From positions 1-22,431 of IMG/VR virus record IMGVR_UViG_2529292726_000014: 22,431 nucleotides of DNA, one strand, 5' to 3'. Made by a program: the position numbers and the translations under genes. The stretch is from a virus. Lineage: Duplodnaviria > Heunggongvirae > Uroviricota > Caudoviricetes. Shown piece by piece: positions 1-19,275 of the stretch (positions within the stretch are counted from its first letter, which is position 1; each line of letters begins with the position of its first letter). Below the pieces are notes generated by a model that saw only the letters and a program-made list of their open reading frames with translations, made no database searches and was not told where the DNA came from.

Positions 1-453
1 ATCGAGGATGAAATACGGGGATTACCGGAGTCAGAGCGTCTTGCCGTCAGGCAGCAGCGAAGCAAAGTGTTACTGACGTCGCTGCATGAATGGATGGTGG
101 AGAAGAATGGTACGCTGTCGAAAAAATCCAGACTGGGCGAAGCGTTCAGCTATGTACTGAATCAGTGGGATGCCCTCTGTTATTACAGTGATGACGGTCT
201 GGCGGAGGCGGATAATAATGCTGCGGAAAGAGCGCTTCGTGCAGTCTGTCTCGGAAAGAAAAACTTTATGTTCTTTGGCAGCGATCACGGCGGCGAGCGT
301 GGAGCACTGTTGTACGGGCTGATCGGCACCTGCCGTCTGAACGGTATCGATCCGGAAGCGTATCTGCGCCATATCCTGAGCGTACTGCCGGAATGGCCTT
401 CCAACCGAGTTGATGAACTCCTGCCATGGAACGTAGTACTCACCAATAAATAA
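1..453 (+). CDS. IS66-family transposase, C-terminal fragment (5' end lies outside the window)
   Basis: Frame 1 is open from position 1 to TAA at 451-453. The translation ...RALRAVCLGKKNFMFFGSDHGGERGALLYGLIGTCRLNGIDPEAYLRHILSVLPEWPSNRVDELLPWNV matches the conserved C-terminal region of IS66-family transposases as I recall it. The GTG at 67 used by the ORF track is internal. Confidence 0.8.
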   Translation: MEDEIRGLPESERLAVRQQRSKVLLTSLHEWMVEKNGTLSKKSRLGEAFSYVLNQWDALCYYSDDGLAEADNNAAERALRAVCLGKKNFMFFGSDHGGERGALLYGLIGTCRLNGIDPEAYLRHILSVLPEWPSNRVDELLPWNVVLTNK

Positions 454-483
454 GCGTCAATACGGTGCTCCGTTGACGCTTAC
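1..483 (+). mobile_element. Right end of an IS66-family insertion sequence (partial, truncated by window edge)
   Basis: The transposase stop is followed by a hairpin (GCGTCAA 454-460 / TTGACGC 473-479) and the sequence ends CGCTTAC at 477-483. Its reverse complement GTAAGCG... is what I recall as the typical IS66-family terminal inverted-repeat start. Exact boundary is uncertain by a few bp. Confidence 0.6.
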
Positions 484-680
484 CACAATGGAGGGGAGTA
501 CCATGAAACTGTTCTCTACACGAGACAGAGTGGTGGTGATGTGTTGATTATCGGCGTATATGCGCACAGGACGCGCTATGACAATGTTTTATGCGGGTAC
601 ACCAATCACATGTATCTGGTGTGATAAATCGCGTTACATGACCTCTCATGTTGTGCTGGTGGTTATCACGACGTTCTGAA

Positions 681-737
681 TCTGGCTTTTGTCTGATATT
701 TTGCGACAAGTACGCGCGCGTAACATCGAAATTATCG
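681..737. repeat. Left copy of an imperfect ~57-bp direct repeat (core GACAAGTACGCGC at 705-717)
   Basis: TCTGGCTTTTGTCTGATATTTTGCGACAAGTACGCGCGCGTAACATCGAAATTATCGG aligns with 3394-3452, sharing a 13-nt identical core plus flanking matches. Confidence 0.6.
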
Positions 738-1057
738 GATGGCGTATGTTGCTGGCAAGATAAAGTCGGCGTAATACAAAGGCGTTACTTGATAGCAGCA
801 AGATTACAACAATGGTTGTTGAATTTGAGCGATGTAAGGAATTGATTTAGGGAGGCGCTGATGGCTAAAAAGTTCCACTACCAGCGGATGAATGCGCCAG
901 CGATGGCCGTTTGGTAGTAAAAGAGGAGCCATTCCTCAATCAGTTGAATACATTATGCCAACTAAATGGGTGGGGGCACTGTGTGGGTATTCAGCGGTGA
1001 CGGTATTTTTTAAGCCAAGGACTATCCGTAGCAGGGGGACTCATTTTGAAATATTTA

Positions 1058-1495
1058 TCATATGTAACTTATTATTTTAGATAAAGATTTCCAGTTAAAG
1101 AAAAAAGTTATCATTGATATAATCAAATATGCCCCTGCGAGTAGCAGGGCATAATAATCCAGAGGCAGATTGCTGACAACAGGGGCAAACATCGAGATCA
1201 TTGCTAATAGGCAGGCTGTGATCAGCGTAGTTCCTGTATCAAAAAGCCCCTCAATAATGCCTTTTAGTACTCCGTTACTTTTTAGAGCGCCTACAATTCC
1301 CTTTGAACTATCAAAGCTACTTAGCATGGTGACTGATGCCAAAACAAAACCAAAGAGAACTCCAGAAATAGTTGAAAGAGCACCAGCAGCCGAAATGACA
1401 GCATTGTGATCTAGGTCGTGTAAAAAATGGGCACCAGCAATAGCCATAGCTAGAGCAAACAATGACTTGGCAGCAAACAATTTCCGAGAACTCAT
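1058..1495 (-). CDS. Small polytopic membrane protein (145 aa, about 3-4 predicted TM helices); candidate effector of a two-gene module
   Basis: ATG at 1495 with an AGGAA Shine-Dalgarno about 9 nt upstream, 12 bp after the stop of the upstream gene. Hydrophobic segments at roughly residues 10-24, 32-60, 88-105 and 113-134. AT-rich relative to the lambda-like genes. Confidence 0.6.
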   Translation of the reverse strand: MSSRKLFAAKSLFALAMAIAGAHFLHDLDHNAVISAAGALSTISGVLFGFVLASVTMLSSFDSSKGIVGALKSNGVLKGIIEGLFDTGTTLITACLLAMISMFAPVVSNLPLDYYALLLAGAYLIISMITFFFNWKSLSKIISYI

Positions 1496-1507
1496 AATGT
1501 ATTCCTG

Positions 1508-2593
1508 TTACGTTTGACTAACCAAATAGTACTGGGTTAGATACCTAAGGTTGTCATTCTTTGCTTGTAGCATAGCATTTTTAACGTCAGTATCGGTCGG
1601 ATACCCATCTGCTTGGATAGGCACCATCTTCTTTACCGTAAGAACTTCGTCTACAAGACTTTTCTTCTTTTTATCGCCCTGAGCAACAACATTTGCTTTC
1701 TCAAAAGTTAAACGACCATCACCACCAGGGAACTTTTCTAGCATCTCCTTAAGGCTTTTTTTAACGTCATCCTCAAGCCATCCCTTTGCTTTTCTTTTTA
1801 ATGGAGAATGTCCGCGTAACGAAATAGTCAGGTGGCTTGAACTGGTGCCTCTGATCATCTCAATCATCTGATTCGCGAACATTCCATCGAGTTGATACTG
1901 TGCGGCATTGAAGTTTCTTGGGATGGCCACAGAAATCTCGCAGCTTCTTAGATTGGATCCAGTTTCGAGTAGTTCTTTGATGCTTTCTTCTTTCCAAATG
2001 GCTTCAAAAGAAACAGGGACTCCGCGATCACTGGAGTTGAAAAGAAGGAAGGCTAAGTCACTATGGCGTGGACCTAAATGATTTAAAGACAATACTAGAA
2101 TGTCTGTCTGAGGATAATAAATAAAGTATGTACGTTCTGAAAGAGTCTTTGCCCCGGCTAGAGGGATTTTCTCTTCCACCCACTCTTTATCTGTAATATA
2201 TGCCAGTGTTGCGCTTTTTCTTCTTCGAGACATGAATCCGAAGTAGGAGCCATCCTCGGGTGAGATGTCTAGAAAATGAATTTTAAGTTCTCTTTCACCA
2301 AAGTCTGCATAGTGGGTCATCTTGAAGTCTTTAGAACACCGATCATACAGATTTTTAAAGGCCTCTGCGGTTAACCCCTTGTTACTAGTGCGAATATTCT
2401 CAGAGCTTGTGTAAAAGCCCACCCTTACAGATTTCAAACTTTGATCTTTTGGTGCCACAGTCATTTGAGCTCCATTGTACTCTGCGAAAGTTTTTGCACA
2501 CCTTGAAATCAAAATCTCCATGTCAGTCACGAGAAAATAACTATGGATGAAACCCATCAAAGGCATTGAATACAGGTGGCTTTTGAGAATCAT
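1508..2593 (-). CDS. Hypothetical 361-aa soluble protein, first gene of a two-gene operon; no family recognised by eye
   Basis: Long uninterrupted minus-strand ORF in an AT-rich segment, ending 12 bp before the membrane-protein gene. No canonical nuclease, ATPase, cyclase or HEPN motif recognised by inspection. Start could be an internal Met (M10, M13 or M25) rather than 2593. Confidence 0.6.
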   Translation of the reverse strand: MILKSHLYSMPLMGFIHSYFLVTDMEILISRCAKTFAEYNGAQMTVAPKDQSLKSVRVGFYTSSENIRTSNKGLTAEAFKNLYDRCSKDFKMTHYADFGERELKIHFLDISPEDGSYFGFMSRRRKSATLAYITDKEWVEEKIPLAGAKTLSERTYFIYYPQTDILVLSLNHLGPRHSDLAFLLFNSSDRGVPVSFEAIWKEESIKELLETGSNLRSCEISVAIPRNFNAAQYQLDGMFANQMIEMIRGTSSSHLTISLRGHSPLKRKAKGWLEDDVKKSLKEMLEKFPGGDGRLTFEKANVVAQGDKKKKSLVDEVLTVKKMVPIQADGYPTDTDVKNAMLQAKNDNLRYLTQYYLVSQT

Positions 2594-2944
2594 CCTAACC
2601 TGGTGACGGTGGTTCGCATATCCTGATGGATGATCAGTGATTAATCAATGCGCCAAGCAGATGTGTCTATGTGTTTGTTAATCATTGCATGACAGTAGAT
2701 CGACATGGGAGATCACGTTATATAGTTGAATTGTTAGGATATCCATGCACCGATCAACTGACTAGGCTGATGTGCTTTTTAGCAGGTGCCATATAGTAGT
2801 TAGGCGGTTCTGTGAAATGATTACTGTTCCAGCATAACTGCGGCATAAAGCGGTGCTATATAAGCTATTTGCTGGCGGATTTAGTCTTCACCGTTAATAT
2901 ATGTAGTGACTATTTGACAGAGTGTTAGTTCACGGACACTTTTT

Positions 2945-3053
2945 GTTGGTTCAAAATGAGTTGATGTTGGTTCAATATTTTAGAAAAAACACAATAAAAA
3001 CAACGCTCTTTACAAATTGAACCAACTGAACCAACTGAACCAACTGAACCAAC
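2945..3053. repeat. Iteron-like array: two inverted copies GTTGGTTCAA (2945-2954, 2966-2975) and about 3.9 tandem copies of GAACCAACT (3019-3053)
   Basis: Read directly from the sequence. Lies in the ~500-bp divergent intergenic region between the minus-strand operon (start 2593) and the PerC-like gene (start 3090). Confidence 0.75.
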
Positions 3054-3089
3054 ACCTTTTTGCTTATCTATATAATCTGAGAGGCAGAA

Positions 3090-3371
3090 ATGATAAGGGA
3101 CAGGAAAGCTGAAGAGCTGGAGTCAAAAGGGCTATACCGGAGAGCTGCCGCACGATGGATGGAAGTCATGCTGTTATGCACCGAGGACGATGATCGGGAA
3201 TGGATAAAGCGCCGCCGTGAAACGTGTCTGGAGAACGTGAAGCGCCCGCCCGTGAAGGTTGAGGAATTTGGCGACCTGCATAAAGCTGTTACCGAAACGC
3301 AACACCGCATGGGGATAGCGCAACCGAACGGTAACGCCTTCCGGTTAAATGGCGGCAAGAGGCAAAGGTAG
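3090..3371 (+). CDS. PerC-family transcriptional regulator (Pch-like)
   Basis: 93-aa product MIRDRKAEELESKGLYRRAAARWMEVM...KAVTETQHRMGIAQPNGNAF matches the conserved PerC/Pch pattern (KAEELE.KGL.RRAAARW, MGI.QPNG) as I recall it. GAGAGG precedes the ATG. Confidence 0.75.
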   Translation: MIRDRKAEELESKGLYRRAAARWMEVMLLCTEDDDREWIKRRRETCLENVKRPPVKVEEFGDLHKAVTETQHRMGIAQPNGNAFRLNGGKRQR

Positions 3372-3375
3372 ACCA

Positions 3376-3397
3376 CCAGAGGGAAATCATCCTCTGG
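3376..3397 (+). terminator. Possible hairpin terminator downstream of the PerC-like gene
   Basis: CCAGAGG (3376-3382) / CCTCTGG (3391-3397) 7-bp stem with 8-nt loop, followed by a T-rich but interrupted tract. Confidence 0.3.
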
Positions 3398-3452
3398 CTG
3401 GCGGTTTCTGGTATTTCGGGACAAGTACGCGCACGCGTAGCACCCAATCGGT
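3394..3452. repeat. Right copy of the imperfect ~57-bp direct repeat (core GACAAGTACGCGC at 3419-3431)
   Basis: TCTGGCTGGCGGTTTCTGGTATTTCGGGACAAGTACGCGCACGCGTAGCACCCAATCGG aligns with 681-737. Confidence 0.6.
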
Positions 3453-3668
3453 GAGGAAATAGCGGCGACCTGAATGGTCAAAATCACAACGCAGCTATCC
3501 CCGTAAGCATCGCTTAACGGAATAGCAGTAACCTGAATCCAGTGGGGAGGGGGTAGTCAAATCTCTACAGGCCTGACTATCCGGGACTGCCCGCCCCATC
3601 GTTTTTTTATACCCGCGAAAAATGAAATTTAATCCGGGCGTGTTTCATCCTTCCAGAGGGTATGACGT

Positions 3669-3854
3669 ATGACACCACGCGAAATAGCCTTATTGACCAT
3701 CGCCAAACTTGAGCACGGAGGCCACCAGCTTACACAGGCAGATCAACGGGAGATAGAACGATCAGTTAATGCCGATATAGCCCGGCGCGACAGGTTCCGC
3801 GAAATGATGCGAGCACCTGCCTACCAGTGGAAGAAGCCAGCGCCGCGCAGGTAG
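3669..3854 (+). CDS. Small prophage protein (61 aa), possibly YdfA/DUF1391-like
   Basis: ORF with GAGGG upstream. Family assignment is from memory only and is weak. Confidence 0.45.
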   Translation: MTPREIALLTIAKLEHGGHQLTQADQREIERSVNADIARRDRFREMMRAPAYQWKKPAPRR

Positions 3855-3974
3855 ATATGGGATTATTCCACATGTAACTTATGCGTATTAAGCAAATTTC
3901 CTTTATTCACCTTTACAGAATTGTGAGTACGTCAGTATCGTTATCCTTCCGATTCGCATTTATTCAGGATTTGC

Positions 3975-4517
3975 ATGTACCAGCTAAAGATAACCATCCG
4001 AGACAGCAAACCACCTATATGGCGGCGTGTGCTGGTTCCAGAGCAAATCCCCTTTAGTAAACTTCATGCCGTGATCCAGTTAGCTTTTGGCTGGAATGAC
4101 GAACACCTGTATATGTTCGAGAAAGGGCGTAAAGGTGATCCAGGTAGCGAGTATCGCGTATGGGGTGAGGATGAAAGCATGGGTAACGCGGCAATCACGC
4201 CACTATGGGCGGCGCTCCAGAATGAGGGTGACAAGCTGGTTTACACGTATGACTTTGGCGACTGGTGGGATTGCGTCATTGTGCTGGAGAAGCAAACACA
4301 CGATACGAGTAATCAGCCCATTAGCTGCCTGCGTGGGAAAGGCACCACCCCGGCGGAAAACTCAGGCGGCTTGCATGGTTACAATGAATTGCTATTACAG
4401 GCCAGAGAGTCTGATAATCCTGAGCAGGCCGAGATCCACAATTTCCTGATGCTGGATATTGAACGCCGGGTTTACGACCTGAGCCGCATCAACGACAGAT
4501 TGCAGGCTATTAACTGA
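3975..4517 (+). CDS. pRiA4b ORF-3-like family protein (180 aa)
   Basis: N-terminal pattern YQLKITIRDSKPPIWRRVLVP...LHAVIQLAFGWNDEHLYMF and later DFGDWW are characteristic of the plasmid pRiA4b ORF-3-like family as I recall it. Confidence 0.6.
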   Translation: MYQLKITIRDSKPPIWRRVLVPEQIPFSKLHAVIQLAFGWNDEHLYMFEKGRKGDPGSEYRVWGEDESMGNAAITPLWAALQNEGDKLVYTYDFGDWWDCVIVLEKQTHDTSNQPISCLRGKGTTPAENSGGLHGYNELLLQARESDNPEQAEIHNFLMLDIERRVYDLSRINDRLQAIN

Positions 4518-4869
4518 CCCGCATGTATTCACCTGATATTGCGTTATCAGCGCCGCCAGTATCGCGCATAACAGCACAATGACCGGGTAAACCGTAACGC
4601 ACGACCGTTGCGTTAGTCTCACCGCCGCGCCTTATCTGGCGCGATTCATACACTGTCACCCGCTCAAGCAGTCCACCAGCTACCATGCTTTCCAGTGTGC
4701 GCCGGGTTGATTCGAGCTGGTGACGCTTATCGAACGACACCATGCCATGAAGCAGGTAGGCCACACCCGACACATCGAACGGCGGCGCACCAATCTCACC
4801 AGTCACCCATTCGAGGTTATCCGGTTCAAAGTAGCTAAGTATCTCTTTTTTGCGGCTGGTCATTCTCAT
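4510..4869 (-). CDS. Hypothetical protein (119 aa), possible winged-helix DNA-binding protein
   Basis: ORF convergent with and overlapping by 8 bp the preceding gene. C-terminal segment TRRTLESMVAGGLLERVTVYESRQIRRGG resembles a winged HTH. Start may be M3. Confidence 0.4.
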   Translation of the reverse strand: MRMTSRKKEILSYFEPDNLEWVTGEIGAPPFDVSGVAYLLHGMVSFDKRHQLESTRRTLESMVAGGLLERVTVYESRQIRRGGETNATVVRYGLPGHCAVMRDTGGADNAISGEYMRVS

Positions 4870-5018
4870 GGCTGGCTGATTCCTTATTGTGGGATAGCAC
4901 TATCATACAATAAGTGGGTTAAAGGGAGAGCGTTACCGCCTGATATGCTGTATGAATAACAACCAAATTTCAGGGGCGGAAAAAGATATGGGGGTACTTT
5001 TGGGGGTGTCTATAAAAA

Positions 5019-5718
5019 ATGAACAATAAAAAAGGCAACAAAAACAAAGCTTATCGCCTATGTGTATTGTTCCTATTATCACCGTATCGCCCGAAAGATG
5101 ATGGCTATGTGGCACAGGGGCGCGAGCTAAAACAGCCCGTCATGGCCCCGCTGATTTCTTACTTTCGTGATGCGCGTAAATCACTGGGAATAACGTCAAA
5201 ACAGATAGCGGAAGCCACCGGAAAGAAAAACATGGCTTCGCACTGGTTTGGTACCAGTCAGTGGCAGTTACCGAACGAGGGTGATTACAACAAATTGCAG
5301 GCGTTGTTTGCGCGTGTTGCGGCAGAAAAAACATCAGCGCGGGGAACTGGAAAAACCACACCACCAGCTGGTCAGCACATACAGTGAGCTGAACCGGCAG
5401 TATACGGAATTGCTGAGTGAATATAAAAATTTGCGGCGGTATTTCGGTGTGACGGCGCAGGTTCCGTACACCGATGTCTGGACGCATAAACCGGTGCAGT
5501 ACTATCCAGGGAAACATCCGTGCGAAAAACCGGCAGAAATGCTGCAGCAGATAATCAACGCGAGCAGTCGTCCGGGAGACCTGGTTGCAGATTTTTTTAT
5601 GGGTTCAGGTTCAACGGTAAAAGCGGCGATGGCACTGGGGCGTTGTGCGATTGGTGTTGAGCTGGAGACAGGACGTTTTGAACAGACAGCCAGGGAAGTT
5701 CAGGATTTAATCGTTTGA
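5019..5718 (+). pseudogene. DNA N6-adenine methyltransferase, split by a frameshift (possibly also lacking a canonical DPPY motif)
   Basis: C-terminal half (frame of 5248..5718) has HPCEKPAEMLQQIINASSRPGDLVADFFMGSGSTVKAAMALGRCAIGVELE, i.e. the HP.QKP and F.GSG.T AdoMet-binding motifs of beta-class phage methyltransferases. The N-terminal portion is in a different frame (5019..5387). The frames switch near the A6 run at 5324-5329 or the A5 run at 5351-5355. Confidence 0.55.
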
Positions 5719-5767
5719 AACGGATGAGATTGCAGAATTAATTACGCACCATTATTATTCTGCTCCC

Positions 5768-5843
5768 GGCCCTTTAGCTCAGTGGTGAGAGCGAGCGACT
5801 CATAATCGCCAGGTCGCTGGTTCAAATCCAGCAAGGGCCACCA
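5768..5843 (+). tRNA. tRNA with CAU anticodon, ileX/ileZ-like (tRNA-Ile2, lysidine) rather than Met
   Basis: Manual cloverleaf: acceptor GGCCCTT/AAGGGCC, anticodon loop CTCATAA, T-loop TTCAAAT, 3' CCA encoded. Very similar to E. coli ileX as I recall it. Confidence 0.8.
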
Positions 5844-5844
5844 A

Positions 5845-5921
5845 CCGTCACCAGTTCATCAGGAAAGAGCGTCAACCCTTTAAGTTGAGTGTGCGAGGTT
5901 CGAGTCCCCGGTGGCGGTCCA
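5845..5921 (+). tRNA. Atypical or degenerate tRNA-like gene (anticodon loop CCTTTAA; UUU if canonical, Lys-like)
   Basis: A cloverleaf can be drawn (acceptor CCGTCAC/GTGGCGG with one G-U pair, T-loop TTCGAGT, CCA encoded) but with C8, C33 and one T-stem mismatch. May be a pseudo-tRNA. Confidence 0.4.
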
Positions 5922-5923
5922 GT

Positions 5924-5999
<76 letters not shown>

Positions 6000-6002
6000 T
6001 AT

Positions 6003-6077
<75 letters not shown>

Positions 6078-6144
6078 GCATTTGCAACAAGCCTTATTGT
6101 ATTGCGGCACTGGTGTATTTTTTATTACGTGGGAGCAGGTTGTT

Positions 6145-6175
6145 TTGAAAAAGCATTCTGTTCTCTGGCTATAAT
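6145..6175 (+). promoter_or_regulatory. Candidate sigma70 late promoter (pR'-like): -35 TTGAAA (6145-6150), -10 TATAAT (6170-6175)
   Basis: Perfect -10 hexamer and near-consensus -35 with a long (18-19 bp) spacer. Lies about 180-200 nt upstream of a strong terminator, as lambda pR' does relative to tR'. Confidence 0.4.
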
Positions 6176-6352
6176 TTGAGGCCAGGTGTAGCCTCAGTGC
6201 TGATTTTTTTACGACAGCAGAATGGTGCATTATCGGTGGAGATTTTGTATTTCCTGGCAGGGTCGGTGATGCATCATTCCGATGTTGTAAGCATCGCTCA
6301 GAATAACGTTGAGATTAATCGCGTACTAAGCAAAACCTGGAAATACATCCTT

Positions 6353-6379
6353 AACCGCCGCACCAGGCGGTTTTTTTTA
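6353..6379 (+). terminator. Rho-independent terminator (tR'-like)
   Basis: AACCGCC / GGCGGTT stem with GCACCA loop followed by T8. Confidence 0.6.
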
Positions 6380-6393
6380 TTCATTTTTTTCAT

Positions 6394-6416
6394 GGCTCGC
6401 TACGGCGGGCCTTTTT
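6394..6416 (+). terminator. Second hairpin terminator
   Basis: GGCTCGC / GCGGGCC stem (one G-U pair) with a short loop followed by T5. Confidence 0.4.
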
Positions 6417-6502
6417 CATATCCTCGCCACACCCGGCGCATATCACATCAAATAACGCCGCGCAAAAGGCATCTGCGGGTGCCTTTGACGGGGTGTTTTT
6501 AC

Positions 6503-6524
6503 GGGCCGCTGGTGGCCCTTTTTT
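6503..6524 (+). terminator. Hairpin terminator immediately upstream of the lysis genes
   Basis: GGGCC / GGCCC stem with GCTGGT loop followed by T6. Preceded by another stem AAAGGCA/TGCCTTT at about 6466-6487. Confidence 0.5.
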
Positions 6525-6543
6525 ATTTACAGGAGAAAAACGT

Positions 6544-6933
6544 ATGTCTGAACCCTTATCCGGTTCCGGCACGGCTGCGGCGCTCGGTGGGGCGACGGTG
6601 TACGGGCTGTTTACCGGAACGGATTTCGGGATTGTGTTTGGTGCGTTCGCCGGGGCGTTATTTGTGGCAACGATGCCGCAGGCGCTTTCAGTCTGGCGTG
6701 TGGTGGCGCATTTTTTGGTGTCGTTTATCGTCGGCGTGCTGGGGGCGCGCGTGCTGTCAGCCTGGATTGCATCAAAAACAGGGTATGACGGTACATCGGC
6801 AGATGCGCTGTGTGCGGTGCTGGTATCGGTGGTGTCGGTGAAGATTCTGTCGTTCATCCACCAGCAGGATATTGCATCGCTGGTGTCCGGTGTGTTCTCC
6901 CGTCTGCGGGGTGGAGGCGGTAATGTTAAGTAA
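6544..6933 (+). CDS. Putative holin (129-aa membrane protein)
   Basis: ATG at 6544 preceded by AGGAG. Glycine-rich product with 2-3 hydrophobic helices, first gene of the lysis cluster. The upstream in-frame ATG at 6493 overlaps the terminator and is rejected. Confidence 0.5.
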   Translation: MSEPLSGSGTAAALGGATVYGLFTGTDFGIVFGAFAGALFVATMPQALSVWRVVAHFLVSFIVGVLGARVLSAWIASKTGYDGTSADALCAVLVSVVSVKILSFIHQQDIASLVSGVFSRLRGGGGNVK

Positions 6934-7198
6934 CCTTCCCGGATTACTGAATGTGGTGTTAAGCACGGTTATCGTGCTGACGCTCTTTTTTTATCGTCGT
7001 GGTGATTCCAGACATAAACCGCTGATGTCGTGGCTGGCCTGGCTGCTGATGCTGCTGTATGCCTTTGCGCCACTTTGTTATCTGTGTGGTCGCTTTCCAC
7101 CCGGTAACTGGCTGGTCGTCCTGATTAACCTGGTGTTCTGCGTGCTGGTGATACGAGCACGCGGGAACGTATCAAAAATCCTTTCATTACGGAGGTGA
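6923..7198 (+). CDS. Second small membrane protein of the lysis cassette (92 aa; holin or antiholin partner)
   Basis: ATG at 6923 preceded by GGAGG, overlapping the previous gene's stop. Two to three TM segments. Confidence 0.5.
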   Translation: MLSNLPGLLNVVLSTVIVLTLFFYRRGDSRHKPLMSWLAWLLMLLYAFAPLCYLCGRFPPGNWLVVLINLVFCVLVIRARGNVSKILSLRR

Positions 7199-7200
7199 GT

Positions 7201-7578
7201 ATGCCCGGTAAATTCAGATTCAGTCGTCGAAGTGAGAAAAATCTGGAGGGCGTCAAACCACAGCTGGTTGCTGTTGTTCGCCGTGCGCTGGAGCTGACGG
7301 AGGTTGACTTCGGTATTACGGAAGGCCTGCGCAGTAAGTATCGCCAGAAGCAGCTGGTCGCGGAAGGGAAAAGCCAGACCATGAACAGCCGCCACCTGAC
7401 CGGTGATGCGGTGGATGTTGTGGCCTACATTGGTAGCCAGGTGTCATGGGACTGGCCTCTGTACGAGAAAATCGCGCAGGCATTTAAGCAGGCTGCCGCA
7501 GAGCTGGGAACTGCCATCGAATGGGGCGGGGACTGGAAAACACTGAAAGACGGGCCTCACTTTCAGTTGAAGCGCTAA
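7201..7578 (+). CDS. Endolysin, peptidase M15 family (L-alanyl-D-glutamate peptidase type)
   Basis: GGAGG then ATG at 7201. Motifs SRHLTGDAVD, DW, and GPHF near the C-terminus resemble zinc-dependent M15 endolysins such as the phage T5 lysin (from memory). Confidence 0.7.
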   Translation: MPGKFRFSRRSEKNLEGVKPQLVAVVRRALELTEVDFGITEGLRSKYRQKQLVAEGKSQTMNSRHLTGDAVDVVAYIGSQVSWDWPLYEKIAQAFKQAAAELGTAIEWGGDWKTLKDGPHFQLKR

Positions 7579-7592
7579 TAACCAGGTGGTTT

Positions 7593-7775
7593 ATGAGCCG
7601 AAAACACTGGACACACAGAATGCCGCGAACGGCGGCGAAATGGGCACTGGTAGCGATACTGGTGCCTTTTTTCCTGGTGGGATGCGTTAGCCTGGATAAG
7701 GTGCGCCAGCTTTTCGATACGGCCTCGCAGGTCTGCGAAATTGTCGAAAGTGCCAGGCAGTGTATGCAGAACTGA
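7593..7775 (+). CDS. Small lipoprotein (60 aa), possible Rz1-like o-spanin with no recognisable i-spanin partner
   Basis: AGGTGG then ATG at 7593. Signal peptide plus lipobox LVGC, last gene of the lysis cluster. Confidence 0.5.
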   Translation: MSRKHWTHRMPRTAAKWALVAILVPFFLVGCVSLDKVRQLFDTASQVCEIVESARQCMQN

Positions 7776-7862
7776 TCGCCTGTAAGAGCAGAATATTGTT
7801 GAATCTAAATTTACTTTGAACAGTGGCCCGGATGGAAAGGGCATCTAAATAGGAGCAGAAAA

Positions 7863-8072
7863 ATGTTAACTGTAAAAGTCATGTCTCAAAATGGTGGGGA
7901 AGAGCTCCATTGCGGGCGTAGCATTGGCTATCATCCAGAGCAGCGGAGTATTGCCGTATCGGGAAAGGATGGGAAAGTCATTCTGAAAGATGGAGATATT
8001 GCTTATGTAATGAACCAAAACGCTCAAATAATATCTGTTTATCGGCCCAATAATAGTCAGAAAAACATTTGA
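7863..8072 (+). CDS. Hypothetical small protein (69 aa) in an AT-rich moron
   Basis: AGGAG 8 nt upstream of ATG. AT-rich codon usage distinct from flanking genes. Confidence 0.45.
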   Translation: MLTVKVMSQNGGEELHCGRSIGYHPEQRSIAVSGKDGKVILKDGDIAYVMNQNAQIISVYRPNNSQKNI

Positions 8073-8195
8073 ATTTCGCAAGTCCAAAGTTCAGTGGTGA
8101 TCGTTATCAACTAATTGAAATAACAAGCTTATGTTTGTGTAATTGGTGATATAGCATGTTAATGCTGAATATCAGCGTCAACATGGAGTTATACA

Positions 8196-8411
8196 ATGGT
8201 TTTTAAACACTATTACGTGAACAAAAATGCTCAGAGCAATGGCGATCATGAGGTGCATGCTGAGGAATGTTCATATCTTCCTGCTGTAGCTAACCGCGAT
8301 TACCTTGGTTACTATAGTGATTGTTCTTCGGCGGTAACAGAGGCAAAGGCCAAAGGATATTCCCGGGTGAATGGTTGCTATTGGTGTGCCAATAAGTGCC
8401 ACACGTCTTAA
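8196..8411 (+). CDS. Hypothetical small cysteine-containing protein (71 aa) in an AT-rich moron
   Basis: GGAG upstream of ATG, five Cys including a C-x2-C pair (CYWC), and a strong terminator immediately downstream. Confidence 0.5.
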   Translation: MVFKHYYVNKNAQSNGDHEVHAEECSYLPAVANRDYLGYYSDCSSAVTEAKAKGYSRVNGCYWCANKCHTS

Positions 8412-8431
8412 TCAATTGTCAATAAACCATA

Positions 8432-8453
8432 AAGGCCGCTCTGCGGCCTTTTT
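8432..8453 (+). terminator. Rho-independent terminator ending the moron
   Basis: GGCCGC / GCGGCC stem with TCT loop followed by T5. Confidence 0.7.
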
Positions 8454-8724
8454 CATGTTAAAAAAGATTGCGGCATTACAGCAGCCCTTCACACTGAGTG
8501 GCTGCGATAATGTGAGAAATAAAAAACCGGCAGGGGAAATCCATTGAAGATTTGCCGGTGGCAAAAAGATGGCCATGCTTTCAACCTTAGTCGCAGGGTT
8601 ACGGAGTGCAACTACGAATGCTGCCGGTATATGGCTGAATGGCGTTTCAATGATGTACGTCATCTTATCTGTAAATGTTAATGATAAAAGCTCTCATTTG
8701 TGCGGGTCCTTCCGGTGGGGTGGC

Positions 8725-8900
8725 CTGCCACGGGGCGGAAGGCGCGCGGGTTTTCGCTATTTATGAAAATTTTCCGGGGAAAATCATGTCGGTACTTCTC
8801 GAACATAACTATTTGTTTTTTCTAATATCGAATCCGTAAAAGGTCCGACATGAAAACGCCTAAAAAAGTCATTTTCGGGCACTTTCATGTCGGACCCTGT
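8725..8900 (+). promoter_or_regulatory. cos site: lambda-like cosN region plus cosB with three Nu1-binding R-site candidates
   Basis: GGGCGGAAGGCGCGCGGGTTTTCGCTATTTATGAAAATTTTCCGG (about 8733-8777) closely matches the lambda cohesive-end region as I recall it. An 11-mer CATGTCGG(T/A)CC occurs at 8785-8795 (direct), 8842-8852 (inverted) and 8886-8896 (direct), just upstream of nu1. Confidence 0.7.
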
Positions 8901-8920
8901 GTTTGTTGTGAGACTGTTTC

Positions 8921-9440
8921 ATGAAGGTTAATAAAAAGAAACTTGCCGAAATTTTCAACGTGGATCCGCGAACGATTGAACGCTGGCAGTCTCAGGGACT
9001 CCCTTGCGTCTCCGGAGGGGGTAAGGGCGTTGAATCTGTATTTGATACCTCCATGGCAATTCAGTGGTATGCGCAGAGGGAGGCTGATATCGAAAATGAA
9101 AAACTCCGTAAAGAGGTTGAGGATTACAGGGCTGCCAGTGAGGCAGATCTCCAGCCTGGGACTATTGAGTACGAACGCCATCGACTTACGCGTGCGCAGG
9201 CCGACGCACAGGAGCTGAAGAATGCCAGAGACTCCGCAGAAGTGGTGGAAACCGCATTCTGTACTTTCGTGCTGTCACGGATCGCAGGTGAAATTGCCAG
9301 TATTCTTGACGGGATCCCTCTCTCGGTACAGCGGCGTTTTCCGGAACTGGAAAACCGACATGTTGATTTCCTGAAACGGGATATCATCAAAGCCATGAAC
9401 AAAGCAGCCGCGCTGGATGAACTGATACCGGGGTTGCTGA

Positions 9441-9466
<26 letters not shown>
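8921..9466 (+). CDS. nu1: Terminase small subunit Nu1
   Basis: From about residue 60 the product matches lambda gpNu1 as recalled. The N-terminal DNA-binding domain is divergent. Confidence 0.9.
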
Positions 9467-13147
<3,681 letters not shown>

Positions 13148-14476: not shown

Positions 14477-14809
14477 ATGACGAGCAAAGAAACCTTTACC
14501 CATTACCAGCCGCTGGGCAACAGTGACCCGGCTCATACCGCAACCGCGCCCGGCGGATTGAGTGCGAAAGCGCCTGCAATGCCCCCGCTGATGCTGGACA
14601 CCTCCACCCGTAAGCTGGTTGCGTGGGATGGCACCACCGACGGTGCTGCCGTTGGCATTCTTGCAGTTGCTGCTGACCAGACCAGCACCACACTGACGTT
14701 CTACAAGTCCGGCACGTTCCGTTATGAGGATGTGCTCTGGCCGGAGGCTGCCAGCGACGAGACGAAAAAACGGACCGCGTTTGCCGGAACGGCAATCAGC
14801 ATCGTTTAA
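14477..14809 (+). CDS. D: Head decoration protein gpD
   Basis: [12 protein letters not shown]... matches lambda gpD. Start at the second ATG (14477). Confidence 0.9.
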
Positions 14810-14828
14810 CTTTACCCTTCATCACTAA

Positions 14829-14850
14829 AGGCCGCCTGTGCGGCTTTTTT
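14829..14850 (+). terminator. Rho-independent terminator between D and E
   Basis: GCCGC / GCGGC stem with CTGT loop followed by T6. Confidence 0.6.
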
Positions 14851-14863
14851 ACGGGATTTTTTT

Positions 14864-15889
14864 ATGTCGATGTACACAACCGCCCAGCTGCTGGCGGCAA
14901 ATGAGCAGAAATTTAAGTTTGATCCGCTGTTTCTGCGTCTCTTTTTCCGTGAGAGCTATCCCTTCACCACGGAGAAAGTCTATCTCTCACAAATTCCGGG
15001 ACTGGTAAACATGGCGCTGTACGTTTCGCCGATTGTTTCCGGTGAGGTTATCCGTTCCCGTGGCGGCTCCACCTCTGAATTTACGCCGGGATATGTCAAA
15101 CCCAAGCATGAAGTGAATCCGCAGATGACCCTGCGTCGCCTGCCGGATGAAGATCCGCAGAATCTGGCGGACCCGGCTTACCGCCGCCGTCGCATCATCA
15201 TGCAGAACATGCGTGACGAAGAGCTGGCCATTGCTCAGGTCGAAGAGATGCAGGCAGTTTCTGCCGTGCTCAAGGGCAAATACACCATGACCGGTGAAGC
15301 CTTCGATCCGGTTGAGGTGGATATGGGCCGCAGTGCGGCGAACAACATCACGCAGTCCGGCGGCACGGAGTGGAGCAAGCGTGACAAGTCCACGTATGAC
15401 CCGACCGACGATATCGAAGCCTACGCGCTGAACGCCAGCGGCGTGGTGAATATCATCGTGTTTGACCCGAAAGGCTGGGCGCTGTTCCGTTCCTTCAAAG
15501 CCGTCAGGGAGAAGCTGGATACCCGTCGCGGCTCTCATTCCGAACTGGAGACAGCGGTAAAAGACCTGGGCAAAGCGGTGTCTTATAAGGGAATGTATGG
15601 CGATGTGGCCATCGTCGTGTATTCCGGACAGTACGTGGAAAACGGCGTCAAAAAGAACTTCCTGCCGGACAACACGATGGTGCTGGGTAACACTCATGCA
15701 CGCGGTCTGCGCACCTATGGCTGTATTCAGGATGCGGATGCATTGAGTGAGGGTATTAATGCGTCTCCCCGTTATCCGAAAAACTGGAAGACATCCGGCG
15801 ATCCGGCGCGAGAGTTCACCATGATTCAGTCAGCACCGCTGATGCTGCTGGCTGATCCTGATGAGTTCGTGTCCGTTCAACTGGCGTAA
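14864..15889 (+). CDS. E: Major capsid protein gpE
   Basis: 341-aa product near-identical to lambda gpE as recalled. Confidence 0.95.
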   Translation: MSMYTTAQLLAANEQKFKFDPLFLRLFFRESYPFTTEKVYLSQIPGLVNMALYVSPIVSGEVIRSRGGSTSEFTPGYVKPKHEVNPQMTLRRLPDEDPQNLADPAYRRRRIIMQNMRDEELAIAQVEEMQAVSAVLKGKYTMTGEAFDPVEVDMGRSAANNITQSGGTEWSKRDKSTYDPTDDIEAYALNASGVVNIIVFDPKGWALFRSFKAVREKLDTRRGSHSELETAVKDLGKAVSYKGMYGDVAIVVYSGQYVENGVKKNFLPDNTMVLGNTHARGLRTYGCIQDADALSEGINASPRYPKNWKTSGDPAREFTMIQSAPLMLLADPDEFVSVQLA

Positions 15890-15930
15890 TCATGGCCCTT
15901 AGGGGCCATTTTCTCTCTGTGGAGGAGTCC

Positions 15931-16326
15931 ATGACGAAAGATGAACTGATTGCCCGTCTCCGGTCGCTGGGTGAGCAACTGAACCGTGATGTCAGCCTGA
16001 CGGGGACGAAAGAAGAACTGGCGCTCCGTGTGGCAGAGCTGGAAGAGGAGCTTGATGACACGGATGACGCAGCCGGTCAGGACTCGTCTGTCAGCCCGGA
16101 AAATGCGCTGACCGGACATGAAAATGAGGTGGTATCAGCACAGACGGATACCGTGACTGATACGGCTGCTCTGGTCACGGTTGTGGCACTGGTGACGCTG
16201 CATACCGATGCACTTCACGCCACGCGGGATGAACCTGTGGCATTTGTGCTGCCGGGAACGGCGTTTCGTGTCTCTGCCGGTGTGGCAGCCGAAATGACAG
16301 AACGTGGCCTGGCCAGAATGCAATAA
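15931..16326 (+). CDS. FI: DNA packaging protein gpFI
   Basis: MTKDELIARLRSLGEQL... matches lambda FI. GGAGGAG upstream of the ATG at 15931. Confidence 0.9.
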   Translation: MTKDELIARLRSLGEQLNRDVSLTGTKEELALRVAELEEELDDTDDAAGQDSSVSPENALTGHENEVVSAQTDTVTDTAALVTVVALVTLHTDALHATRDEPVAFVLPGTAFRVSAGVAAEMTERGLARMQ

Positions 16327-16337
16327 CGGGAGGCGCT

Positions 16338-16691
16338 GTGGCTGATTTCGATAACCTGTTCGATGCTGCCATTGCCCGCGCTGATGAAACGATACGCGGG
16401 TACATGGGAACGTCAGCCACCATGACATCCGGTGAGCAGTCCGGTGCTGTGATACGTGGTGTTTTTGATGACCCTGAAAATATCAGCTATGCCGGACAGG
16501 GCGTGCGCGTTGAAGGCTCCAGCCCGTCCCTGTTTGTCCGGACTGATGAGGTGCGGCAGCTGCGGCGTGGAGACACGCTGACCATCGGTGAGGAAAACTT
16601 CTGGATAGACCGGGTTTCGCCGGATGATGGCGGAAGCTGTCATCTCTGGCTTGGGCGTGGCGTGCCGCCTGCCGTTAACCGTCGCCGCTGA
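16338..16691 (+). CDS. FII: Head-tail connector gpFII
   Basis: 117-aa product matching lambda FII. GTG start. Confidence 0.9.
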   Translation: MADFDNLFDAAIARADETIRGYMGTSATMTSGEQSGAVIRGVFDDPENISYAGQGVRVEGSSPSLFVRTDEVRQLRRGDTLTIGEENFWIDRVSPDDGGSCHLWLGRGVPPAVNRRR

Positions 16692-16702
16692 AAGGGGGAT
16701 GT

Positions 16703-17281
16703 ATGGCCATAAAAGGTCTTGAGCAGGCCGTTGAAAACCTCAGCCGTATCAGCAAAACGGCGGTGCCTGGTGCCGCCGCAATGGCCATTAACCGCGTTGC
16801 GTCATCCGCGATATCGCAGTCTGCGTCACAGGTTGCCCGTGAGACAAAGGTACGCCGGAAACTGGTAAAGGAAAGGGCCAGGCTGAAAAGGGCCACGGTC
16901 AAAAATCCGCAGGCCAGAATCAGGGTTAACCGGGGGGATTTGCCCGTAATAAAGCTGGGTAACGCGCGGATTGTCCTGTCCCGACGCAGGCGTCGTAAAA
17001 AGGGGCAGCGTTCAGCCCTGAAAGGTGGCGGCAGCGTGCTTGTGGTGGGAAACCGTCGTATTCCCGGCGCGTTTATTCAGCAACTGAAAAATGGGCGGTG
17101 GCATGTCATGCAGCGTGTGGCCGGGAAAAACCGTTACCCCATTGATGTGGTGAAAATCCCGATGGCGGTGCCGCTTACCACGGCGTTTAAACAGAATATT
17201 GAACGGATACGGCGTGAACGTCTTCCGAAAGAGCTGGGCTATGCGCTGCAGCATCAACTGAGAATGGTAATAAAGCGATGA
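16703..17281 (+). CDS. Z: Tail completion protein gpZ
   Basis: 192-aa product matching lambda gpZ. Confidence 0.9.
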   Translation: MAIKGLEQAVENLSRISKTAVPGAAAMAINRVASSAISQSASQVARETKVRRKLVKERARLKRATVKNPQARIRVNRGDLPVIKLGNARIVLSRRRRRKKGQRSALKGGGSVLVVGNRRIPGAFIQQLKNGRWHVMQRVAGKNRYPIDVVKIPMAVPLTTAFKQNIERIRRERLPKELGYALQHQLRMVIKR

Positions 17282-17673
17282 AACATACTGAACTCCGTGC
17301 AGCCGTACTGGATGCACTGGAGAAGCATGACACCGGGGCGACGCTTTTTGATGGTCGCCCCGCTGTTTTTGATGAGGCGGATTTTCCGGCAATTGCCGTT
17401 TATCTCACCGGCGCTGAATACACGGGCGAAGAGCTGGACAGCGATACCTGGCAGGCGGAGCTGCATATTGAAGTTTTCCTGCCTGCTCAGGTGCCGGATT
17501 CAGAGCTGGATGCGTGGATGGAGTCCCGGATTTATCCGGTGATGAGCGATATCCCGGCACTGTCAGATTTGATCACCAGTATGGTGGCCAGTGGCTATGA
17601 CTACCGACGCGACGATGATGCGGGCCTGTGGAGTTCAGCCGATCTGACTTATGTCATTACCTATGAAATGTGA
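17278..17673 (+). CDS. U: Tail terminator protein gpU
   Basis: 131-aa product matching lambda gpU. Confidence 0.9.
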
Positions 17674-17680
17674 GGACGCT

Positions 17681-18421
17681 ATGCCTGTACCAAATCCAGT
17701 AATGCCGGTGAAAGGGGCCGGGACCACACTGTGGGTTTATAAGGGGAACGGTGACCCTTATGCGAACCCGCTTTCAGACGTTGACTGGTCGCGTCTGGCT
17801 AAAGTTAAAGACCTGACGCCCGGCGAACTGACCGCTGAGTCCTATGACGACAGCTATCTCGATGATGAGGATGCGGACTGGACTGCGACCGGGCAGGGGC
17901 AGAAATCTGCCGGAGATACCAGCTTCACGCTGGCGTGGATGCCCGGAGAGCAGGGGCAGCAGGCGCTGCTGGCGTGGTTTAATGAAGGCGATACCCGTGC
18001 CTATAAAATCCGCTTCCCGAACGGCACGGTCGATGTGTTCCGTGGCTGGGTCAGCAGTATCGGTAAGGCGGTGACGGCGAAGGAAGTGATCACCCGCACG
18101 GTGAAAGTCACCAATGTGGGACGTCCGTCGATGGCAGAAGATCGCAGCATGGTAACAGCGGCAACCGGCATGACCGTGACGCCTGCCAGCACCTCGGTGG
18201 TGAAAGGGCAGAGCACCACGCTGACCGTGGCCTTCCAGCCGGAGGGCGTAACCGACAAGAGCTTTCGTGCGGTGTCTGCGGATAAAACAAAAGCCACCGT
18301 GTCGGTCAGTGGTATGACCATCACTGTGAAAGGCGTCGCTGCAGGTAAGGTCAACATTCCGGTTGTATCCGGTAATGGTGAACTTGCTGCGGTTGCAGAA
18401 ATCAACGTCACCGCCAGTTAA
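17681..18421 (+). CDS. V: Major tail tube protein gpV
   Basis: Matches lambda gpV from MPVPNP... Start at 17681, not the upstream in-frame ATG at 17651. Confidence 0.9.
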
Positions 18422-18436
18422 TCCGGAGAGTCAGCG

Positions 18437-18859
18437 ATGTTCCTGAAAACCGAATCATTTGAACATAACGGTGTGACCGTCACGCTTTCTGAACTGTCAG
18501 CCCTGCAGCGTATTGAGCATCTTGCCTGGTTGAAAGAGCAGGAAAAAAAGGCTGAATCCAGTGGCAACCTGCAGGTGTCTGTAGAGGATCTTATCAGAGG
18601 CGGGGCGTTTCTGGTGGCGATGTCTCTGTGGCATAACCATCCGCAGAAGACAAAGCTGCCGTCCATGAATGAAGCCATTACGCAGATTGAGCAGGAAGTG
18701 CTTACCACCTGGCCCACGGAGGCAATTGCTCAGGCTGAAAACGTGGTGTTACGTCTGTCCGGAATGTCTGAGTTTGTGGTGAATAATTCCCCTGAACAGG
18801 CAGAGGATGCCGGGCCTGCAGAGCCTGTTTCTGCGGGAAAGTGTTCGACGGTGAGCTGA
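18437..18859 (+). CDS. G: Tail assembly chaperone gpG
   Basis: 140-aa product matching lambda gpG. Confidence 0.9.
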   Translation: MFLKTESFEHNGVTVTLSELSALQRIEHLAWLKEQEKKAESSGNLQVSVEDLIRGGAFLVAMSLWHNHPQKTKLPSMNEAITQIEQEVLTTWPTEAIAQAENVVLRLSGMSEFVVNNSPEQAEDAGPAEPVSAGKCSTVS

Positions 18860-19275
18860 GTTTTGCCCTGAAACTGGCGCGCGAGATGGGGCGACCCGAC
18901 TGGCGCGCCATGCTTGCCGGGATGTCATCCACGGAGTATGCCGACTGGCACCGCTTTTACAGTACCCATTATTTTCATGATGTTCTGCTGGATATGCACT
19001 TTTCCGGGCTGACGTACACCGTGCTCAGCCTGTTTTTCAGCGATCCGGATATGCATCCGCTGGATTTCAGTCTGCTGAACCGGCGCGAGGCTGACGAAGA
19101 GCCTGAAGATGATGTGCTGATGCAGAAAGCGGCAGGGCTTGCCGGAGGTGTCCGCTTTGGCCCGGACGGGAATGAAGTTATCCCTACTTCCCCGGATGTG
19201 GCGGACATGACGGAGGATGACGTAATGCTGATGACAGTATCAGAAGGGATCGCAGGAGGAGTCCGGTATGGCTGA
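18437..19275 (+). CDS. T: Tail assembly chaperone gpGT, made by -1 programmed ribosomal frameshift from G into the T frame
   Basis: Slippery heptamer G GGA AAG at 18835-18841 near the end of G. The downstream -1 frame encodes the lambda gpT sequence (FDGELSFALKLAREMG...). Confidence 0.8.
18835..18841 (+). other. -1 programmed ribosomal frameshift slippery site (GGGAAAG) for G-T
   Basis: Identical heptamer and position to the lambda G/T frameshift site as I recall it. Confidence 0.8.

Follow-up and report, generated by a model that had tools for sequence, protein, structure and literature searches.

A probable natural lambda/21 mosaic at the cos site and small terminase gene of a lambda-like prophage, with a variant cohesive-end sequence

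The window, that is the whole stretch of 22,431 nt that was analyzed, contained the packaging start of a lambda-like prophage. Positions 8704–9466 comprised the cos site and the small terminase gene, with lysis genes on one side and head genes on the other. The order from left to right was cosQ, a 22-nt spacer, the cohesive-end position, a 33-bp linker, R3, I1, inverted R2, R1, Nu1, and gpA (Table 1). The complex cosB layout of lambda-like cos sites was present, with R3 at bp 50–65 followed by a predicted IHF site, an inverted R2, and R1. The open reading frames of Nu1, gpA, and the downstream head genes ran without interruption in the window. Pfam matches were judged against the curated gathering threshold, and all three exceeded it: Phage_Nu1 (PF07471) over residues 1–164 of Nu1 (E = 2.6e-90, 300.8 bits, cut-off 30), GpA_ATPase (PF05876; 168.5 bits, cut-off 25.6), and GpA_nuclease (PF20454; 253.4 bits, cut-off 22.5).

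Table 1. Features of the packaging start, with positions counted from the first letter of the window.
Feature	Position	Strand	Sequence	Basis
cosQ, packaging-termination signal	8704..8710	+	GGGTCCT	7-mer identical in lambda, 21, PhiR46_1, and IdasGreatGrand (alignments); cosQ annotation of OL657228 at the homologous place
cosQ–cosN spacer, 22 nt	8711..8732	+	TCCGGTGGGGTGGCCTGCCACG	divergent from the 23 nt of lambda
cosN including CG flanks	8731–8746	+	CG-GGGCGGAAGGCG-CG	left half GGGCGG and both CG kept
Predicted 12-nt cohesive-end sequence in cosN	8733..8744	+	GGGCGGAAGGCG	homology and conserved cosN-to-R3 spacing
cosN–cosB linker, 33 bp	8745..8777	+	CGCGGGTTTTCGCTATTTATGAAAATTTTCCGG	identical to lambda; 8762–8776 is the counterpart of annotated phage 21 I2
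R3, predicted small-terminase binding site, 21 type	8782..8797	+	AATCATGTCGGTACTT	bp 50–65 from the left end; phage 21 R3 is AATCGTGTCGGTACTT at bp 50–65
I1, predicted IHF bending site between R3 and R2	8804..8818	+	CATAACTATTTGTTT (reverse complement AAACAAATAGTTATG)	aligns with phage 21 I1, TATAACTTTTTGTTT (M81255) and TAACTTTTTGTTT (OL657228)
R2, predicted small-terminase binding site, inverted	8840..8855	-	AAGGTCCGACATGAAA on the + strand	16/16 bp as in annotated phage 21 R2
R1, predicted small-terminase binding site	8883..8898	+	TTTCATGTCGGACCCT	phage 21 R1 is TTTCATGTCGGGCCTT, 2 differences
Nu1, small terminase subunit	8921–9466	+		Pfam Phage_Nu1 match
Nu1 codons 1–68, winged helix-turn-helix DNA-binding domain, 21 type	8921..9124	+		59/68 identical to 21 gp1
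Nu1 codons 69–181, oligomerization and TerL-binding half, lambda type	9125..9466	+		residues 100–181, 80/81 identical to lambda
gpA (TerL), lambda type, ATPase motor and cosN-nicking endonuclease	9441..11366	+		99.1% identity to lambda gpA

The first-pass annotation of this DNA had described a divergent Nu1 N-terminus joined to a lambda-like remainder, and the alignments bore this out. Residues 1–68 shared 59 of 68 positions with 21 gp1 vs. 40 of 68 with lambda Nu1, and residues 100–181 shared 80 of 81 with lambda and 32 of 81 with 21; from residue 72 to residue 181 the protein was essentially identical to that of lambda. In the two type phages, the recognition helix comprises residues 17–24 and the wing residues 31–39, of which Lys35 reaches the minor groove (PMC4669245; PMC9026076). 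Residues 8–29 in the window were identical to 21 gp1, including the recognition helix, which read RTIERWQS (Glu20, Ser24) as in 21, whereas lambda has RTIQNWQE (Gln20, Glu24). The wing read SGGGKGVES compared with SKGSKGIES in 21; residues 32, 34, and 37 differed, two of these three matched lambda, and Lys35 was kept. Among the PDB structures catalogued as terminase small subunit, 7LWR, which carries the phage 21 gp1 sequence, matched residues 1–54, and matches were also seen to the lambda chains 1J9I and 6HN7. At the level of sequence, Nu1 is built like the laboratory lambda-21 hybrid TerS, in which the DNA-binding domain is that of 21 and the TerL-binding half that of lambda.

The cosB region followed the same pattern. 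Three copies of an 11-mer in direct-inverted-direct order had been described upstream of Nu1, and both the order and the number held (consensus CATGTCGG): CATGTCGGTAC at 8785–8795 (+), CATGTCGGACC at 8842–8852 (-), and CATGTCGGACC at 8886–8896 (+). The exact consensus proposed earlier did not fit the first copy, which ended in GGTAC and not in GGTCC and was one mismatch away. The number of copies alone was weak evidence, because three matches with at most one mismatch anywhere in the 22.4-kb window were also reached in 3 of 100 shuffles (shuffle mean 0.85). The three CATGTCGG sites lay within 112 bp (8785–8896), and they aligned position for position with R3, R2, and R1 of phage 21, for which the curated annotations in M81255 and OL657228 (R3, I1, R2, R1) served as references. 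This clustering, together with the positional homology, provides the decisive evidence for the repeats as putative R sites. The spacing was also close to that of 21: the cosN-to-R3 and R2-to-R1 (43 bp) distances were equal and the R3-to-R2 distance was one bp longer. I1 was conserved between the window and phage 21.

Discrimination between the DNAs of lambda and 21 exceeds 1000-fold in both directions, and the key determinants are bp 56 and 59 of R3 and residues 20 and 24 of TerS; bp 55–63 of R3 contact the DNA-binding domain (PMC4669245; PMC9026076). In the window, bp 56 (8788) and bp 59 (8791) were both G as in 21, while lambda has T and C. The sole difference from 21 R3 was at bp 54, and bp 55–63 were identical. 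The alignment of both the Nu1 N-terminus and the R sites against lambda had been proposed as a check on the swap, and neither was of lambda type; both followed phage 21. The cosB/Nu1 module was assigned to the 21 type because R3, I1, R2, and R1 occupied the homologous positions and G56/G59 and Glu20/Ser24 were all of 21 type. The prophage should therefore be expected, as far as these determinants predict, to package with the specificity of phage 21 and not with that of lambda.

At the sites that distinguish lambda from 21, the window followed lambda up to ~8775, 21 from ~8776 to ~9110, a mixture of both at ~9110–9148, and lambda again from ~9149. These switch points indicate that the swapped block comprised cosB and Nu1 codons 1 to about 64–76, in other words, what appear to be the DNA-binding domain together with the sites it would bind. 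The earlier suggestion that cosB and the Nu1 DNA-binding domain were swapped together as a packaging-specificity module was thus supported. The right junction of the module is placed by these sites at about 9110–9150, and the linker at 8745–8777 is likely the left recombination junction. The 21-type block was ~86% identical to phage 21 DNA across 8778–9120, which suggested an old, diverged allele rather than a recent acquisition from phage 21. Chimera is meant here relative to the type phages lambda and 21, and the term implies no direction of exchange.

Close known counterparts are the laboratory lambda-21 hybrids, such as lambda 21hy51 from the Feiss laboratory, which are viable, have 21 specificity, and carry a chimeric TerS (PMC9026076; PMC4669245). 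The division of the small subunit into domains was worked out with this chimeric TerS (PMC9026076). The window resembled them in combining 21 cosB and the 21 N-terminal TerS domain with the lambda TerL-binding part and lambda gpA. However, about 600 bp and "much of" Nu1 were replaced in the hybrids, whereas the junction in the window lay after about codon 64–76. The version in the window was also natural and widespread, and it carried a non-canonical cohesive-end allele. Phage 21 itself shared with the window the R3-I1-R2(inverted)-R1 order and the DNA-binding domain, the N-terminus of its gp1 being represented in 7LWR. It differed in the C-terminal half of Nu1 and in gpA, both of lambda type in the window, as well as in cosN's right half and the cosQ–cosN spacer; 21 has the cosN of lambda.

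The description of gpA as lambda-like was correct. The protein was identical to lambda gpA at 635 of 641 residues (99.1%), compared with 65.6% identity to phage 21 gp2, and at 39 of the 40 residues of its N-terminus (residues 1–40). The C-terminal half of Nu1 and the N-terminus of gpA were both of lambda type, which at the sequence level is what lambda-specific TerS–TerL pairing calls for. A co-variation of the cosN variant with the nuclease subunit was also considered. The gpA in the window differed from that of lambda at six residues and the gpA of PhiR46_1, which carries the same cohesive-end variant, at three, and no residue absent from lambda was common to both carriers. A matched change in TerL specificity was rejected on this ground.

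The cosN-proximal sequence had been reported as lambda-like with a variant 12-nt core, and this was confirmed. The core at 8733–8744 was GGGCGGAAGGCG, compared with GGGCGGCGACCT in lambda, phage 21, and IdasGreatGrand, and its flanks were lambda-like, with ACG at the left and an identical sequence at the right (8745–8777). A lambda-like cosN was defined, following PMC4669245, by a GGGCGG left half and a CG flanking each nick position. The changes relative to lambda were at bp 7, 8, 9, 10, and 12 only, all inside the right half. The spacer between cosQ and cosN was one nt shorter than that of lambda and differed at ~9 positions, with the terminal ACG/CG beside the nick being kept.

Among related phages, the left half and the CG flanks of cosN are conserved and cosQ is highly so, and cosN is functionally asymmetric: mutations at bp 7–12 have little effect, and natural variants cluster there (PMC4669245). 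Such variants are found at bp 9 and 12 in N15 and phiD326 and at bp 8, 9, and 11 in Gifsy-1 (PMC4669245); the N15 end was confirmed from the N15 record as GGGCGGCGTCCG. Phages mEp213 and LLS, with GGGCGGCGCGCT, belong to the same series, and all of these resemble the window in varying at bp 7–12 and keeping bp 1–6 and the CG flanks. Lambda TerL cleaves lambda cosN and N15 cosN equally well (PMC4669245), so that in N15, as would apply here, a matching TerL change is apparently unneeded. The positions reported as conserved (bp 1–6, both CG flanks, and cosQ) were unchanged in the window. The variant is probably functional, because its changes were confined to the mutation-tolerant bp 7–12 and all conserved positions were intact. 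The five changes in 12 cohesive-end bases exceeded the two or three changes of the variants with documented function in the literature consulted. This particular 12-mer may be undocumented hitherto. No phage record in the collection began at it, and in a text search of the library its sole match was an unrelated Ginkgo paper and no phage paper contained it; the cosN survey of Vahanian et al. (2017, Virology 509:140) was outside the reach of that search.

The distribution of the alleles was examined in isolated phages, IMG/VR, and complete genomes. The isolated phage IdasGreatGrand carried the chimeric Nu1 (99.4% identical) and the cosB of the window with a canonical cosN. Strains O157:H7 SS52 and UPEC 54214 also combined this Nu1 (99% identical) and the 21-type cosB with canonical cosN. 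Conversely, GGGCGGAAGGCG occurred with lambda-type cosB and Nu1 in PhiR46_1 and YDC107_1. It was also present in ~23 replicons of E. coli, Shigella sonnei, E. albertii, and E. fergusonii, mostly about 46 kb and deposited as plasmids; the one inspected carried protelomerase, RepA, SopA, ParB, and lambda-type morphogenesis genes and was an N15-like plasmid prophage. PhiR46_1 is likewise an N15-like plasmid prophage, whose record starts with the telL site. Its presumed activity is taken from the record metadata, namely a named propagation host and the annotated telL site. In the IMG/VR sample of 119 loci matching CGGGGCGG-N6-CGCGGGTTTTCGCTAT, bp 7–12 read CGACCT in 112, AAGGCG in six, and CGACCG in one. 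The six AAGGCG loci had lambda-type cosB in three cases, 21-type in two, and one other type in one.

Among complete E. coli genomes, 311 of 5426 covered at least 80% of window positions 8704–8900. About 36 records matched this segment over its full length at 95.9% identity or more, including the spacer and the variant cosN, and 31 of them did so at 100%. These full-length carriers were mostly ETEC, with H10407 and E24377A among them, plus sheep isolates. The spacer type of the window was present in these ~36 records and in three IMG/VR loci, one of which had a canonical cosN. In APEC E19035, this spacer type and a lambda-type cosB accompanied a third cohesive-end allele, GGGCGGCAGGCG. The abundance of lambda/21 chimeric TerS in nature may not have been described before.

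The cohesive-end variant, which the first-pass annotation had described alongside the swapped module, did not belong to that co-variation, since the chimeric Nu1/cosB also occurred with canonical cosN and GGGCGGAAGGCG with lambda-type cosB. The mixed combinations of sticky-end allele, spacer type, and cosB type across genomes indicate that the allele, the spacer, and the cosB/Nu1 module assort independently, as judged from sequence. Lambda-type and 21-type cos sites shared the 33-bp linker without a single difference, and in IMG/VR it was joined to at least six cosB types. This shared segment between cosN and R3 would be the obvious place for crossovers between the modules, and the variant cohesive end probably reached this prophage by recombination within it. 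The 33 conserved bp appear to act as a recombination joint, through which sticky-end alleles and recognition modules would be shuffled independently.

Taken together, it is very likely that window positions 8704–9466 represent a natural lambda/21 mosaic, with a 21-type cosB and Nu1 domain, a lambda-type remainder, and a separate natural cosN allele in the half of the site that terminase tolerates. The locus is an ordinary mosaic of known parts and not a new system, and the accepted mechanism is unchanged. With lambda it shared cosQ, the left half of cosN, the CG flanks, the 33 bp after cosN, Nu1 residues 72–181, gpA, and presumably the overall mechanism; it was unlike lambda at bp 56/59, at residues 20/24, at cohesive-end bp 7–10 and 12, and in the length of the spacer. 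Binding, bending, nick positions, and packaging specificity were inferred as follows. The 21-type Nu1 domain would bind the three 21-type R sites. Bending by IHF at I1 would allow a Nu1 dimer to bridge R3 and the inverted R2, with R1 being accessory. The lambda-type C-terminal half of Nu1 would recruit and hold the lambda-type gpA. The gpA anchored at R3, with cosN 49 bp from R3, would nick the bottom strand between bp 12 and 13, and a second gpA would nick the top strand before bp 1. The two nicks would be placed 12 bp apart by homology and by the conserved cosN-to-R3 distance, and the virion DNA would hence end in the 5′ overhangs GGGCGGAAGGCG. Packaging would then run rightward and end at the next cos via cosQ.

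The laboratory lambda-21 chimeric small terminase appears to have a widespread natural counterpart. The value of this finding lies mainly in annotation and practical use. A prophage lineage common in ETEC (H10407, E24377A) is expected to have 21 packaging specificity and non-canonical sticky ends. These properties bear on the prediction of which co-resident prophages, cosmids, and phage-inducible islands are mobilized, and on genome-end calling.

Two explanations other than the mosaic of known parts were given some weight, and both were considered improbable. The first is that the packaging module represents a fourth specificity, related to 21 but functionally distinct, with no reciprocal packaging with phage 21. 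The first-pass annotation had written of a different cosB/Nu1 specificity, comparable with the lambda-versus-21 case. The ~86% DNA identity of the module across 8778–9120, the wing differences at residues 32, 34, and 37, and the differences from 21 at 2 of 16 bases in R1 and 1 of 16 in R3 would agree with this. In addition, the cosB types in IMG/VR far outnumber the three tested specificities, and few of them have been examined (PMC4669245). However, residues 8–29 of Nu1, the recognition helix included, were identical to 21 gp1, and Lys35 of the wing was kept. The TerS-contacting bp 55–63 of R3 and all 16 bp of R2 were also identical to 21, and the discriminating positions known from the literature, bp 56 and 59 together with residues 20 and 24, were of 21 type throughout. 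The module thus proved to be the phage 21 type itself, with 59 of 68 residues of gp1. A quantitatively altered specificity relative to phage 21 may nevertheless exist, given the wing, the two bases of R1, and the one base of R3. The wing differences at 32, 34, and 37 were the main reason for leaving room for such a difference.

The second explanation, about equally improbable, is decay of the cos site into a relic: the prophage would be cryptic, and the changes in the cohesive end and spacer would represent drift that inactivated cosN. Five substitutions within six bases and a one-nt spacer deletion could be read in this way. The exact combination was carried mostly by ETEC, where vertical inheritance could explain its frequency. 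Insertion sequences were also found in sister copies of the prophage. The closest genome, E. coli 510016, was 100% identical to window positions 484–22431 in two pieces split by ISEc10, which lay inside gpA, and ISCro1 was found in sister copies of H10407-like strains. The prophage lineage may be in decay, and the copy in the window may never undergo induction. Nevertheless, ISEc10 was absent from the window, where gpA was intact and Nu1, gpA, and the downstream head genes were uninterrupted, and the changes in cos spared all reportedly conserved positions. Because of this difference in gpA, the view that the window is simply strain 510016 was rejected. The 12-mer was shared by PhiR46_1, for which a propagation host is on record, and by autonomous N15-like plasmid prophages from E. 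coli, Shigella, E. albertii, and E. fergusonii; a dead cos would stop the horizontal spread of such elements. The allele also occurred with three cosB types, which argued for repeated successful recombination and not for local decay.

It is highly improbable that the three CATGTCGG repeats are functionless chance matches, as the shuffle counts alone might allow, because they were clustered in 112 bp directly upstream of Nu1, extended to 16-bp matches, were conserved in hundreds of genomes, and lined up with the curated R3, R2, and R1 of phage 21 in their position, orientation, and spacing, a positional homology that refuted chance.

For the mosaic locus as preferred here, a further proposal was that the five-mismatch allele (GGGCGGAAGGCG vs. 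GGGCGGCGACCT) keeps co-resident lambda-like elements genetically isolated from one another. This was considered rather unlikely, though less so than the alternatives above. Two cohesive-end mismatches cause about a fourfold loss in yield (PMC4669245). If the proposal were true, a chromosome packaged between unlike cos alleles would have non-annealing ends, and recombinants or cross-packaged DNA between carriers of the allele, N15-like elements included, and canonical lambda-like phages would be inviable. Together with the cosB/Nu1 swap, cos would then be a two-part "compatibility label" under diversifying selection and not a drifting tolerant half-site. As to the symmetry of the site, the twofold symmetry of cosN extended over 8 of 16 bp in the window compared with 10 of 16 bp in lambda.

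The cohesive-end allele of the window, GGGCGGAAGGCG (8733–8744), was also found in ~23 replicons that had been deposited as plasmids, most of them ~46 kb in size, and their hosts were E. coli, Shigella sonnei, E. albertii and E. fergusonii. NZ_CP101200.1 (1–46173), the single replicon inspected among them, is an N15-like plasmid prophage that encoded protelomerase, RepA, SopA and ParB, and its terminase, head and tail genes were all of the lambda type. A telL site was present at the start (1–22) of phage PhiR46_1 (PV340565.1), which carries the same allele. The N15-like plasmid-prophage lineage may be the source of GGGCGGAAGGCG in the integrated ETEC prophage.

The cosQ-cosN spacer (8711–8732) comprised 22 nt vs. 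23 nt in lambda, and ~9 positions were unlike those of lambda. This window-type spacer was found again in ~36 E. coli genome records. In APEC E19035 (locus L015, about 3062–3083), it was combined with a third cohesive-end allele, GGGCGGCAGGCG, and a lambda-type cosB, and in one IMG/VR locus it stood beside the canonical cosN.

Downstream, at least six cosB types followed an identical cosN and conserved sequence among the sampled IMG/VR loci (L016–L134; examples are L025, L038, L072, L016, L056, and L079), where the conserved stretch after cosN was at least 16 bp, as set by the search pattern. In addition to cosB of the lambda and 21 types, the loci contained the N15/Monarch-like GGTGGTTGTTGTT type, the GGTGCTGGTGGTGGTTTTGTTGTT, AATCAGATCCGTTCTTC, and AGCATGTCAGTTCTTC types, and a very common CCATGTCCGGTTTC...GAACCGGACATG type, which may belong to phage-inducible islands. 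To our knowledge, only three packaging specificities have been tested experimentally.

The prophage of the window is composite. Positions 1–5700, upstream of the tRNA genes, were absent from the other ETEC copies of the prophage, in which the match to the window began at about 5081 or 5730. The gene content of this left part was taken from the genome closest to the window, that of E. coli strain 510016 (locus L012, 1–11069), which covers the counterpart of 1–5700 and the adjacent upstream DNA.

Genes of the left part with its adjacent upstream DNA, and of the tRNA cluster (window positions unless stated)
Feature	Position	Source
P22-like ejection and injection protein genes	L012, within 1–11069	strain 510016
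PerC-family regulator	3090–3371	strain 510016
pRiA4b ORF-3 family protein	3975–4517	strain 510016
DNA methyltransferase remnant, frameshifted	5082–5718	strain 510016
tRNA, CAT anticodon (Ile per RefSeq)	within 5768–6077	ARAGORN
tRNA-Lys-TTT	5845–5921	ARAGORN
tRNA-Thr-TGT	within 5768–6077	ARAGORN
tRNA-Gly-TCC	within 5768–6077	ARAGORN

The four clustered tRNA genes were located upstream of the lysis genes; the RefSeq annotation of the cluster contained three genes only, without tRNA-Lys-TTT.

In some strains, copies of this prophage lineage are undergoing inactivation. The IS21-family element ISEc10 interrupted gpA in strain 510016 (NZ_CP025851.1, locus 14792–19133) at the equivalent of about 10280 in the window, where gpA itself was uninterrupted, and the IS66-family element ISCro1 was present in H10407-like copies.
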